Shown here: positions 26,333-29,530 of the stretch, piece by piece
Numbering within the stretch: position 1 is the stretch's first letter
How the letters are laid out: each line of letters begins with the position of its first letter
Notes under the pieces: generated by a model
The model's input: the letters and a program-made list of their open reading frames with translations, nothing else
Databases searched by the model: none
Told to the model about the DNA's origin: nothing
Made by a program: the position numbers and the translations under genes
Assembly (NCBI RefSeq): GCF_051097895.1
Contig: NZ_CP142525.1
Location: forward strand, 240,001 to 272,000
Length of the DNA stretch: 32,000 nucleotides
Direction of reading: 5' to 3'
Source of the DNA: Psychrobacter sp. HD31
GTDB lineage: Bacteria; Pseudomonadota; Gammaproteobacteria; Pseudomonadales; Moraxellaceae

Positions 26333-29300
26333 CTAAGTTTCCATAAAAATATTATTTGTACTAAAATGCTTCTCATCTACCTTGATAAACATATGACTTA
26401 CAAATTCCTGCATTGATGTGTCGATATCTGATTGCACATATAAAATATTTTCTTTTAAGAAGACAGCTTTATTTATCTCTAGCATTTTGTAGTTAGGTCC
26501 TTCTATGATTAAATCTTCAAGATAATTTTCTATTTGATTTAGATCATCGCAAAATAATGATAAGTTTTTTAATTGTTTCTTATCTTCGTCTGTTGGTATA
26601 AGACATACGGTACTTGTTGAGTCTAAAACACTAGATTGATATAGTTGGTTTGTACACATTCCCAGGATGATAGTAGAACTAAATAAAAATTTCTCATCCG
26701 ACTTTTTACTACCAACAAACTTTACATCAATGGTTTGATCAAAACATTGTTTAAGACGGTTTATGAAGTCATGCTTGAACTTGTAATCTATATTTATAAC
26801 AACTGACCCTCCTAATTCTTTAATTACCTTGTTAATGCTTTTGGCGATAGTCAGCACAATAGTCCGCGATAACCCATGAGTTAGTAACATGACTGTTTTT
26901 TTCTTCATATCACTGACTTTATTAGTATGATGTGAAATCATATTATTAGTAGGGGAGATACCTGTAGTCATTTGCTTAAGTCCAGTTAACCTGTATCGTG
27001 ATTTTTCGTTATTATCAATCCAAGCAATAGAAGGTGGTAGCTCAATGCTTAATAAATTTGACAGATTATTTTCTTTAGAAGACTGAATAATTGATGAGTT
27101 ATTACCTGTATCGTGACTAACTTTATATAGTAGTTGAGCAGTAGTTGATTCATGATCTATAAAAACAACTTTTTTGTTGTTTTGTAATAAATGTTTAAAA
27201 CTTGCTAATGTAAAAAAAATATGAAATATATCTTTGCTATATTTGATAATGTTTTTTTCAAGTATTTGAATCAGTGCTTTTGGAAGCTTTTTATTCAAAT
27301 CTGACAAAAGTATTGTTGAAAAATATTTAATGAATTGAGGACGGTACGCATAGTAGGAGGAATATGAATACTTTGAATCATTGATTTGTTGATTTAAAAT
27401 ATCACAATTATCAGGTAATTCAGATTTTAGTAGATCATACTCATTTTTTTGATCGTTAATTACCTCTTCATTTAAAAGTAATGTAGCATTTGTACTGAAC
27501 AATGGACTTTGACTAAGTAGTCTTTTAACTAACGTGATTGATGCATCATCTGGCGATAAGCAAACAACAATGCCTTCTTGATTGTAAGAGGGTTGGGTTG
27601 GTTGGTTCAAGGTTATATCGTACCAGAATTTAGCAAATAAACGTTTTTCTTCTGGTATATCAAATGGCTGAGTTAAATCTGTTTTTAATTTTGGTTTTAT
27701 GCCTTTTCGGGCAACATCTCTGCTCAGCTTCTGATTTTTTAGTGCAATATTAATTTTACCTTCAAAATCTAAAACGTTGGCATGATGACATAAACAGTAA
27801 AATAAGTCTTGTATAGAAGAGAGGTCATCGGCATAGATAAAAATTGTATCGTATTCTTCTATGATGCTTTTAGCCGTATTATAAATTTGATATAAGAATA
27901 ATATCTCTTGTTCTATACCTTTAGCTATTATTCTAAGGTAAGTGTCGGGAATCAATTGTTCAGACACATATGACTTTAAAGTGTGTAGTATGGTGTTTGA
28001 AATGGTCTGTAGGTCTGGTGTTGTCTTATTTAACTGACTAAACCAATCTAATGCTGAATTATCTTCAAATGAATAAAGATTGATTGAATTAAGATACTCA
28101 AATGGGACAACAACCTCATTTGATACAGGCGTTATTGTGTCGTGATAAAAAATATCTACTTTTTTTGTATTGTGATTAGTAAGATCACAAGCAAACTCCA
28201 TGGCGTCACTACTATCAGAAATAACAGCTAGTTTTTTGCTACTTGATTTTTTATGATACAGTAAGTCTAACGGGTGAGTGGTAGCTAAATTATAAATTTT
28301 TCGGGTTTGTTGGCTATCAAATAACTCAAGGTTTTGGTTTTGCCTAATAATGCCATCTAAGTAAACTAATGAATCATTTAGATTCGATTTTCTCTTGGTG
28401 TCATTAATACGGTATCTTGGATATAAAATATAAGCTGCAGCAAAAACCTCTAATAAACTTAATTCCCTTTGCCTTCTATCTACATGTTGTCTATCATCTG
28501 TTAATCCCCAACCAGAATAAAAAGGAGCACCCAGAGTTGTAACTGGCACACCATTTATTAATGATTCAAAGCCACCTAAAGAAGTGATTGTATAGACCCT
28601 ATCTACACCGGTTAATGCATCAAACATAGACATATTAGTATGATAAACTTCAACATCTATATCTGTATTTAAAGAATCAGAAATTTCTTTTCTTTTGCCT
28701 TTAAGTACATCGGGGTGTGGTTTGAAGATAACTTGTGCGTTAGGGTTTTCACGAATTGCGATTTTAATTAGCTCTAAATTGGTAATAATTTCTTGGCAAC
28801 CAAATAAAACAGACTGATCGTCTTCTACTTGCCCTAGAACTAAGATTCTTTTTCTAGTTTTTTTACCATATAAACTTTCTGCAATATTATTTTGTGTATG
28901 GTTGTACTTATTAATTTTATTTTTCTTAATAAAGTTAATTGCTTCTTCTGCTTGTTTCATAAGCTCATAATCGGCATCAAAACTATAATGATTTAATATG
29001 TTTTCTAAATCAGATGGAAGAGAAGAGTCGTAGTAAAATCCAGTTTTATCAAGGCATAAAGATACAGGTGCAACTTTATCTGCCCCTAACCCAACAGAAC
29101 GAATAAAACCATCTTCTATATGGTAGATATTGATATTGTTTTCTATAGCGTAAGCAGAAATATTTTGGGGGACTTTTCTGCCCCACATGATAAAACAAAC
29201 TTTGGGCAAAAAGTTAATGACTTTATTATATCGATTTAAATCAGCATTTAGTGACAGGTAGATTAACCTATATTCGGGTAAAAACTGTCTTACATATTCT

Positions 29301-29530
29301 CGTTTCCATTGGGAAACATTAAAAACAAATGCTATGGGTTTTGTAACGTTTATATCTTTTATTATTTTATTTACTTTTGTAATATCATGGTTAATAGATT
29401 GTCGAAATGATTCAACATCTTCTAATAAACCTAAAGCACCCTTTTTTTTAACAGTTAGATATGAACTTTTACTTTTAGCTGACGTTACTTGTAGGAATTT
29501 TTTACTAAATCGACGAATAGGTAATTGCAT
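26333..29530 (-). CDS. 1065-aa multidomain protein: N-terminal KpsC/KpsS-type (Capsule_synth) beta-Kdo transferase domain plus a roughly 650-aa C-terminal region of unknown family; candidate Kdo-polysaccharide synthase
   Basis: Residues about 90-400 carry HIEDGFIRSVGLG, VLGQVEDDQS, FKPHPDV, TSLGGFESLINGVPVTTLGAPFYSGWGLTDD and LYPRY, the motif order I recall from KpsC/KpsS/LipA/LipB. I see no motif I recognise in the rest. G+C is about 28-35%. It is the first gene of the operon. Confidence 0.7.
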   Translation of the reverse strand: MQLPIRRFSKKFLQVTSAKSKSSYLTVKKKGALGLLEDVESFRQSINHDITKVNKIIKDINVTKPIAFVFNVSQWKREYVRQFLPEYRLIYLSLNADLNRYNKVINFLPKVCFIMWGRKVPQNISAYAIENNINIYHIEDGFIRSVGLGADKVAPVSLCLDKTGFYYDSSLPSDLENILNHYSFDADYELMKQAEEAINFIKKNKINKYNHTQNNIAESLYGKKTRKRILVLGQVEDDQSVLFGCQEIITNLELIKIAIRENPNAQVIFKPHPDVLKGKRKEISDSLNTDIDVEVYHTNMSMFDALTGVDRVYTITSLGGFESLINGVPVTTLGAPFYSGWGLTDDRQHVDRRQRELSLLEVFAAAYILYPRYRINDTKRKSNLNDSLVYLDGIIRQNQNLELFDSQQTRKIYNLATTHPLDLLYHKKSSSKKLAVISDSSDAMEFACDLTNHNTKKVDIFYHDTITPVSNEVVVPFEYLNSINLYSFEDNSALDWFSQLNKTTPDLQTISNTILHTLKSYVSEQLIPDTYLRIIAKGIEQEILFLYQIYNTAKSIIEEYDTIFIYADDLSSIQDLFYCLCHHANVLDFEGKINIALKNQKLSRDVARKGIKPKLKTDLTQPFDIPEEKRLFAKFWYDITLNQPTQPSYNQEGIVVCLSPDDASITLVKRLLSQSPLFSTNATLLLNEEVINDQKNEYDLLKSELPDNCDILNQQINDSKYSYSSYYAYRPQFIKYFSTILLSDLNKKLPKALIQILEKNIIKYSKDIFHIFFTLASFKHLLQNNKKVVFIDHESTTAQLLYKVSHDTGNNSSIIQSSKENNLSNLLSIELPPSIAWIDNNEKSRYRLTGLKQMTTGISPTNNMISHHTNKVSDMKKKTVMLLTHGLSRTIVLTIAKSINKVIKELGGSVVINIDYKFKHDFINRLKQCFDQTIDVKFVGSKKSDEKFLFSSTIILGMCTNQLYQSSVLDSTSTVCLIPTDEDKKQLKNLSLFCDDLNQIENYLEDLIIEGPNYKMLEINKAVFLKENILYVQSDIDTSMQEFVSHMFIKVDEKHFSTNNIFMET

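Follow-up and report, generated by a model that had tools for sequence, protein, structure and literature searches.

What does a bacterium make with a 1065-residue protein that ends in a long stretch without a recognisable domain and is encoded beside a complete set of genes for an activated sugar? This question is raised by VH441_01080, a gene on the minus strand (26333..29530) of a 32,000-nucleotide stretch of the Psychrobacter sp. HD31 genome (contig NZ_CP142525.1, positions 240,001 to 272,000; hereafter the window). [quoted passage not shown] An earlier note, made from the sequence alone, had read the protein as a Kdo transferase of the KpsC/KpsS type fused to an unassignable tail, and had proposed this tail as a module of a new kind, be it a polymerase, a transferase for a second linkage or an anchor. 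Our analysis leads to a different answer, which we consider reasonably probable: the protein would combine a single active beta-Kdo transferase and a scaffold that is a pseudo-glycosyltransferase, in a cassette that lies on a repeat-flanked, low-GC island.

The open reading frame (ORF) begins with ATG and runs through 1065 codons without interruption. Its product is identical to the NCBI hypothetical protein VH441_01080 of Psychrobacter sp. HD31, the sole member of its 90% cluster. The translation contains EDGFIRS (residues 139-145), QVEDDQS (234-240), KPHPDV (270-275), TSLGGFE (316-322) and GAPFYSGWGLTDD (334-346), and thus all motifs that the earlier note had quoted from this frame. The tail has no segment resembling a transmembrane helix, the maximum 19-residue Kyte-Doolittle mean being 1.38, in agreement with the earlier reading. 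A Pfam scan of the whole ORF returned a single domain, Capsule_synth (PF05159), over residues 112-373 (E=1.5e-44; 153 bits against a cut-off of 20). Residues 68-391 moreover align with the crystal modules of KpsC (6mgd, 6mgb, 6mgc and 8fuw) at E=2e-55 to 1e-42, which bears out the assignment of the N-terminal 400 or so residues as Capsule_synth/GT107-like.

Catalysis by KpsC involves the Asp of a QxxxD motif as nucleophile, the His of an HP motif, a general-base Glu and a Lys-Tyr pair of the helical subdomain, the HP-motif His protonating the CMP leaving group (PMC10148158). Residues of this type are aligned with those of KpsC in the HD31 module, namely E139 (HIEDGF), K208-Y209, Q234...D238 (QxxxD) and H272-P273; Q234-V-E-D-D238 matches the QxxxD of the Thermosulfurimonas dismutans enzyme, and K-P-H272-P273-D-V lines up with the HPE/HPD of KpsC. 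The QxxxD, HP, EDG and K-Y residues are invariant across a 32-member alignment of full-length relatives, and the N-terminal module keeps 129 of the 138 family-conserved columns (93%). By all sequence-level criteria for GT107, it is therefore a bona fide KpsC-type retaining beta-Kdo-transferase domain. Its predicted reaction, retaining beta-Kdo transfer from CMP-Kdo, is supported by the gene context, a dedicated kdsD-kdsA-kdsBC operon: the neighbouring genes were identified as kdsD/kpsF, kdsA and a kdsB-kdsC fusion, so that the operon is, as had been supposed, otherwise devoted to CMP-Kdo, with VH441_01080 as its only transferase.

The tail, residues 405-1065, has no match in Pfam, NCBIfam, PADLOC or PDB sequences, and a profile search of PDB sequences with the C-terminal alignment likewise gave nothing at E<=1. 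For single-sequence profile libraries the word "unassignable" is thus apt, but it does not hold beyond them, because homology and fold searches place the tail in a two-module family. When the tail alone (656 residues as query) was run with phmmer against 1.84 billion representatives, nine proteins were matched; the best match (P0053, E=6.4e-30) is a 1060-residue protein whose residues 414-1045 are collinear with tail residues 3-625. Full-length relatives found by BLASTP are about 1020-1107 residues long, with 91-96% query coverage and 30-34% identity; over the family as aligned, full-length identity is 27-34%. An AlphaFold (AF2) model of the HD31 tail, with a predicted local distance difference test score (pLDDT) of 73 and a predicted template modelling score (pTM) of 0.66, has as Foldseek neighbours UDP-N-acetylglucosamine (GlcNAc) 2-epimerases, BshA, MurG and the Cps3 multienzyme of A. 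pleuropneumoniae (8qoy). All are proteins of the glycosyltransferase B (GT-B) fold, matched with a Foldseek probability of 1.0 and E values of about 1e-7 to 1e-5. The tail of an intact relative is modelled better at similar alignment depth (pLDDT 87.7, pTM 0.87) and finds the same GT-B neighbours together with WaaA and TagF. Taken together, homology and predicted fold make the tail assignable: it belongs to a two-module family, in which it is the second module, with a GT-B fold.

How this module relates to known glycosyltransferase families is less sharply defined. When the tails of the relatives were scanned singly, they gave weak GT-B matches, with Glycos_transf_1 in 18 and polysialyltransferase (PF07388) in 14 of the 32, in addition to Epimerase_2 and Glyphos_transf. 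Two intact relatives pass the PF07388 gathering score over the half that holds the HP motif (27.8 and 37.5 bits versus 23.3), and the HD31 tail itself has no PF07388 match. A polysialyltransferase fold was absent from the top 50 Foldseek neighbours of the decayed and the intact tail alike; since both searches returned generic GT-B folds only (epimerases, WaaA, TagF, GT4), the link to GT38 is one of Pfam scores. A word-indexed search with one intact tail retrieved 26 proteins of 950-1067 residues (all but one of at least 1022), all of them fused to GT107; none of these 26 matches was a tail module on its own or one that carries a name.

The HD31 protein stands apart in the state of its second module. 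With conservation in 80% or more of the family as the threshold, 125 tail columns count as conserved; the protein keeps 35 of them (28%) and has thus lost 72%, compared with 82-100% retained in intact members; two other proteins are intermediate, P0113 with 50% and P0120 from Psychrobacter immobilis with 56%. The conserved relatives share the tail motifs TTRDxLAN, SIHKxYS, GLEDYxY, CGNxxxxNYAYSPA, IGIQPQxISxSxRY, MGVIDxxQ, IFFAMQHS, LIVKPHPHQELP, SDTY and VVGLFSSVLLEAA. Every conserved family tail motif is lost in the query, including HP, QPQxxS, AMQHS, SDTY and SSxxLE: KPHPHQE has become NIDYKFK, QPQ reads QSS, AMQHS reads LLTHG, and GLFSSVLLEA is replaced by GMCTNQLYQS. A motif scan of the HD31 tail revealed no QxxxD in context, no EDG or other [DE][DE]G motif and no catalytic-type HP, and the sole remaining HP (residue 419) falls outside the family HP column; the earlier remark that the tail lacks a second EDGF/HP pair is therefore correct.

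This loss is accompanied by accelerated divergence. At an N-terminal identity of 0.49-0.59, tail identity is 0.31-0.38 in intact pairs versus 0.14-0.21 in pairs with the query, which means that the tail has diverged at roughly double the pace seen in intact relatives. The decayed pair P0113/P0120 behaves similarly (N-terminal module 0.74, tail 0.40; 0.75 and 0.66 in an intact pair at the same distance). The content of the residues G, A, R and P (GARP) in the HD31 tail is lowered to 9.8%. Nevertheless, the tail is still maintained as a coding frame: 661 stop-free codons have a chance probability of about 2e-24 at the local base composition, and the other five frames of this stretch contain 40-81 stops. 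Because the frame is open and a fold is still predicted, the tail is probably retained for a structural role, and motif loss by itself suggests that it is probably inactive as an enzyme. The earlier proposal of a new catalytic or anchoring function for residues 410-1065 must accordingly give way to that of a homologue of a conserved GT-B module from a family of two-module proteins, with most conserved positions lost.

The architecture as such is not new either; HD31 carries a decayed version of an existing, uncharacterised combination of GT107 and GT-B modules. The same two modules occur in a family of proteins of about 1050 residues, with members in, for instance, Acinetobacter sp. NIPH1876 (P0071), A. 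higginsii CIP 70.18, Achromobacter insolitus (P0118) and Bordetella ansorpii, and each of these proteins is, as in HD31, a single large transferase that precedes a CMP-ulosonic-acid pathway. The relatives have kept their C-terminal motifs and sit by legionaminic-acid-type genes, whereas HD31 has lost the motifs, carries Kdo genes instead and has its cassette on an island. We compared nine intact loci (L001, L004, L005 and L007-L012) with three decayed ones (the HD31 window, L002 and L006). The intact loci come from Acinetobacter, Achromobacter, Bordetella ansorpii, Comamonadaceae and Psychrobacter-like bacteria, and in most of them the gene lies at about 10001-13200. In all nine, it adjoins genes for a dehydratase, a DegT aminotransferase, a PglD-like acetyltransferase, NeuB, a NeuC-like Epimerase_2 protein, a CBS-nucleotidyltransferase and a CMP-synthetase, a set which we take to be the legionaminic-acid route, as in the Campylobacter pathway. 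Six of the nine carry kpsM, kpsT and kpsE next to the gene, five of these six also kpsD (the KpsD of L012 fell below the coverage filter). Four of the kps-bearing loci have a separate kpsC and/or kpsS, which argues for the family protein of kps loci being a serotype-specific polymerase rather than a linker enzyme. A contig scan with the full-length alignment, for which the patterns were N-terminal, returned mostly ordinary KpsC/KpsS-like loci, with L010-L012 as the only family members and without HD31 itself. In the literature, we found no paper on the GT107 + GT-B family or on Kdo-containing Psychrobacter capsules.

In all three decayed members, kpsF, kdsA and kdsB-kdsC follow the gene instead of legionaminic-acid-type genes. 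This association between decay and Kdo genes (nine of nine intact loci versus three of three decayed ones) has a Fisher exact p of about 0.005, for loci that are not phylogenetically independent. In Psychrobacter-type contigs, both cassette types fill the same slot between sucD and galU-pgi. The cassettes in L002 and L006, which are of the P. immobilis type, additionally contain a hexapeptide acetyltransferase gene and a convergent small GT107 gene (14695-15312 and 17472-18452 in L002; 4799-5398 and 7571-8587 in L006), the latter encoding proteins of 326-338 residues with 83% conservation from one locus to the other. The two extra genes point to a Kdo polymer with two linkages and O-acetylation as the product of the P. 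immobilis-type cassettes, and to a reduced version of it in HD31. Among the decayed cassettes of HD31, L002 and L006 (the last two being a P. immobilis and a metagenomic one), the Kdo genes show 67-90% identity, and all three have the unusual fusion of kdsB with kdsC. In a neighbour-joining tree of the N-terminal module, P0113 and P0120 group together (99.7%) and are nested with intact Psychrobacter-type proteins (83%), and the three decayed members were monophyletic in 0 of 300 bootstraps. A single origin of the decay with rate acceleration (and a long-branch artefact in the tree), independent decay and gene replacement are all possible.

These patterns suggest how the two modules may share their work. 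As the surviving module is the most KpsC-like and the dying module tracks the loss of legionaminic-acid genes, Kdo transfer would fall to GT107 and nonulosonic-acid transfer to the GT-B module. The C-terminal module of the intact relatives would thus transfer a legionaminic-acid-type sugar and GT107 Kdo, yielding a two-sugar capsule polymer. The HD31 lineage would have lost the nonulosonic-acid branch and gained a dedicated Kdo supply, and the Psychrobacter Kdo cassettes would be Kdo-only derivatives. The second module would by now be a pseudo-glycosyltransferase with no catalytic role, retained to aid folding, to act as a scaffold or to bind a partner. The single GT107 site could then work by KpsC-type double displacement: CMP-Kdo would form an adduct with Asp238, His272 aiding the departure of CMP, and Glu139 would activate a hydroxyl of the acceptor for its attack on this Asp238-Kdo adduct. 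The expected product is a beta-Kdo-containing surface glycan, most likely an oligomer or polymer of Kdo with one type of linkage.

What kind of glycan this might be is where the explanations diverge. A four-enzyme CMP-Kdo supply of its own speaks for a high demand for the donor and therefore suggests an oligomeric or polymeric product, and a single active site would allow a single linkage only. A Kdo-rich polymer is possible. In its most far-reaching form, HD31 would possess a minimal poly-beta-Kdo synthase, that is, a processive one-linkage GT107 enzyme with a dead GT-B scaffold, whose product reaches the cell surface with no dedicated KpsMT-type locus, for instance on lipooligosaccharide (LOS) or by way of an unlinked exporter, and whose intact relatives form a new class of Kdo-legionaminic-acid capsule co-polymerases; we regard this extension as rather doubtful. 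Alternatively, the protein may be no polymerase at all, its GT107 module attaching beta-Kdo, as one residue or a few, to a glycan of other origin, for instance the LOS outer core, a Wzy-type capsule unit, a chain capped by a WbbB-like terminator or a KpsC/KpsS-like linker. The one GT107 site, with its single linkage specificity, would fit this, export or anchor genes were found neither in the island nor in the window, the Psychrobacter cassettes adjoin galU-pgi-ugd sugar genes and not kpsMT, and GT107-type enzymes such as KpsS and KpsS1 do work as single-residue transferases. However, the complete private pathway points to a high demand for the donor, and the relatives, as the sole region-2-type transferases in kps loci with separate kpsC/kpsS, look like polymerases, so that we entertain this explanation only tentatively. 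The general alternatives, a polymer or oligomer of Kdo versus the addition of Kdo, once or a few times, to a different glycan, carry broadly similar weight. The view with which the locus was first described, an active tail serving as novel polymerase, second-linkage Kdo transferase or lipid-anchoring domain, by which the protein alone builds a complex Kdo-rich polymer, can draw on the frame open over 661 codons, on the predicted GT-B-like fold and on the dual ulosonic-acid transferase proposed for poly-Kdo in E. coli K6 (GT29-GT107; PMC13171606). It is unlikely nonetheless, given that every motif conserved in the relatives' module, HP included, is gone, that divergence is accelerated, that pLDDT is 73 versus 88 for an intact relative at similar alignment depth, that profile and PDB sequence searches gave no match, and that the decay tracks the loss of legionaminic-acid genes.

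The preferred explanation, an active beta-Kdo transferase joined to a pseudo-glycosyltransferase scaffold, has to contend with several observations that count against it. The databases searched hold no close relative of the exact HD31 protein, and a re-tooled active site in the tail may be the alternative to inactivity. The assignment of sugars to modules is a parsimony argument, and GT107 enzymes can use other ulosonic acids, an example being KpsS1, a transferase of pseudaminic acid (Pse) cited in PMC12887879. Within the window, there is no kpsM/T/E/D/S-type gene, which confirms the absence of kps export genes reported before, and no acceptor, lipid anchor or export system was identified there for the HD31 cassette. 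The island ends 61 bp past kdsBC, both the small GT107 and the acetyltransferase of the P. immobilis-type cassettes are missing from it, and the HD31 copy may consequently be a truncated, less capable cassette. Another possible reading is that the cassette is a recently inserted, truncated and inert remnant heading for loss, for which the near-identical 771-bp flanking repeats (suggestive of a recent event), the missing genes, the abrupt end and the decayed C-terminal module could be cited. We consider such inertness very unlikely in view of four ORFs that are intact at a GC background of 30-38%, N-terminal catalytic residues that are all preserved, and Kdo enzymes that score above curated NCBIfam cut-offs.

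Comparison with known systems helps to define what is new in this protein. The N-terminal module aligns over about 300 residues with KpsC of E. coli and T. dismutans (6MGB/6MGC/6MGD/8FUW) and shares the CMP-Kdo donor pathway with it. KpsC consists of two GT107 modules, which build alternating beta-2,4/2,7 linkages on a phosphatidylglycerol-Kdo primer, with kpsMTED alongside, whereas the HD31 protein has a single PF05159 stretch plus the decayed GT-B module and no kps genes in the surrounding 32 kb. Likeness to the NeuS/SiaD polysialyltransferases (GT38, PF07388) is confined to intact family members, the HD31 tail being without a PF07388 match and without the family HP. Non-catalytic GT-B-fold partners are experimentally supported as separate subunits, GtfB of the GtfA-GtfB O-GlcNAc transferase complex being one example; the HD31 module, which is fused in cis, is likewise predicted to have a GT-B fold, lacks catalytic motifs and would presumably aid an active transferase as scaffold, chaperone or acceptor-binding partner. 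A parallel in architecture is a GT29-GT107 protein of E. coli K6, in which GT107 is fused to a second module of the CMP-ulosonic-acid-transferase type and for which a Kdo-only polymer has been proposed (PMC13171606). Its partner domain, GT29, is presumably active and belongs to a group 2 kps locus, while the HD31 partner is a different, decayed GT-B module. Structure prediction has tied GT107-like and GT99-like domains to Kdo in E. coli K antigens, and for the Kdo of the K13 capsule KrkA became the founding member of GT140 (PMC12887879).

GT107 has been known mainly for the short Kdo linker of group 2 capsules, and it was not until 2026 that GT107-type and related modules were connected with the Kdo of serotype-specific polymers. 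The fusion of GT107 to a second ulosonic-acid-type transferase is an already known kind of architecture; new here are the uncharacterised GT-B partner with marginal GT38 similarity, its decay in Kdo cassettes, and an island without export genes. The intact family likely represents unstudied single-protein Kdo/nonulosonic-acid capsule polymerases of Acinetobacter, Achromobacter, Bordetella and Psychrobacter. Its decayed members amount to a natural experiment, in which the death of a module coincides with the exchange of a nonulosonic-acid pathway for a Kdo pathway and hints at which module uses which sugar. The HD31 protein could serve as a "one active site" variant for work on acceptor specificity and processivity. 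If it were indeed a minimal poly-beta-Kdo synthase, a co-polymerase would have turned into a homopolymerase by domain death and a sugar-pathway swap. For genome annotation, the case is a warning that a large unannotated tail of a glycosyltransferase may be a relic rather than a new enzyme.

The positions of the cassette and of its flanking elements are compiled in Table 1. Two 771-bp direct repeats flank a four-gene island of 6.9 kb with a GC content of 0.33, compared with about 0.41 in the flanks; the transferase gene itself has 0.30-0.31. This repeat-flanked unit of 7659 bp suggests a recent single-crossover or duplication-associated insertion. The truncated AdeK-like copy downstream of the island corresponds to the ORF at 22374-22988. 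Outside copy B (29909-29957), we also observed a 19-nt patch, ATGTGAGGTTTTTTTTG, that matches without a difference the 3' half of the terminator of tRNA-Asp beside copy A (22241-22266), with about 50 bp of diverged sequence around it. The duplicated or recombined segment may originally have measured about 820 bp, or a donor locus that had diverged may have been its source. Scans for promoters and terminators did not rise above chance, no ops/JUMPstart element was found near the operon, and Rfam families other than two tRNAs were not detected.

Table 1. Positions in the window of the Kdo cassette, its protein modules and the flanking elements
Feature	Position	Strand	Basis and remarks
Whole ORF VH441_01080	26333..29530	minus	1065 aa; GT107 module fused to decayed GT-B module
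Basic N-terminal extension, residues 1-61 (MQLPIRRFSKKFLQVTSAKSKSS...)	29348..29530	minus	outside Pfam and PDB matches; no family assignment
Intact GT107/Capsule_synth module, residues ~62-400	28331..29347	minus	Pfam, KpsC PDB alignments, conserved columns
Decayed GT-B-fold module, residues 405-1065	26336..28318	minus	homology to the HP-motif module of the ~1050-aa family; predicted non-catalytic
kdsD/kpsF, arabinose-5-phosphate isomerase (SIS + CBS)	25296..26264	minus	TIGR00393 kpsF, 332 bits, above cut-off
kdsA, Kdo-8-phosphate synthase	24428..25273	minus	NF009109, 509 bits, above cut-off
kdsB-kdsC fusion, CMP-Kdo synthetase + Kdo-8-phosphate phosphatase, 426 aa	23131..24411	minus	NF009905, residues 3-239; TIGR01670, residues 255-406
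AT-rich upstream region	29531..29957	minus	promoter-like hexamers TAGATA-16-TATAAT ending 5 nt before ATG; consensus matches only
Direct-repeat copy A, 771 bp	22299..23069	.	terminator + 3' 695 bp of AdeK-like channel gene, truncated duplicate
Direct-repeat copy B, 771 bp, 2 mismatches to copy A	29958..30728	.	3' end of intact AdeK-like gene 30033..31685

The remainder of the window encodes carA/carB, a hexapeptide transferase, a HAD hydrolase, a peptide-chain release factor, a decarboxylase, an EamA transporter and a saccharopine dehydrogenase, as well as a PALP enzyme, a phosphoesterase, a cyclophilin, glutaminyl-tRNA synthetase (GlnRS), two tRNAs, the AdeK-like channel and the end of an RND pump. 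The minus-strand gene at 6144-8600 encodes an 818-residue ATPase of the AAA_13/SMC-like kind, which was matched to PDC-S06, a candidate defence system in PADLOC (E=1.7e-123); with its low-GC surroundings (0.33-0.34), this PDC-S06-type ATPase may mark a small defence island. Proteins of 293 and 354 residues, encoded on the minus strand at 2352-3233 and 12446-13510, have no Pfam or PADLOC match, the latter at a GC content of 0.33-0.34. Finally, the 518-residue protein encoded at 19784-21340, again on the minus strand, combines a DNA-binding HTH_3 domain at its N-terminus with a class I/II aminotransferase.

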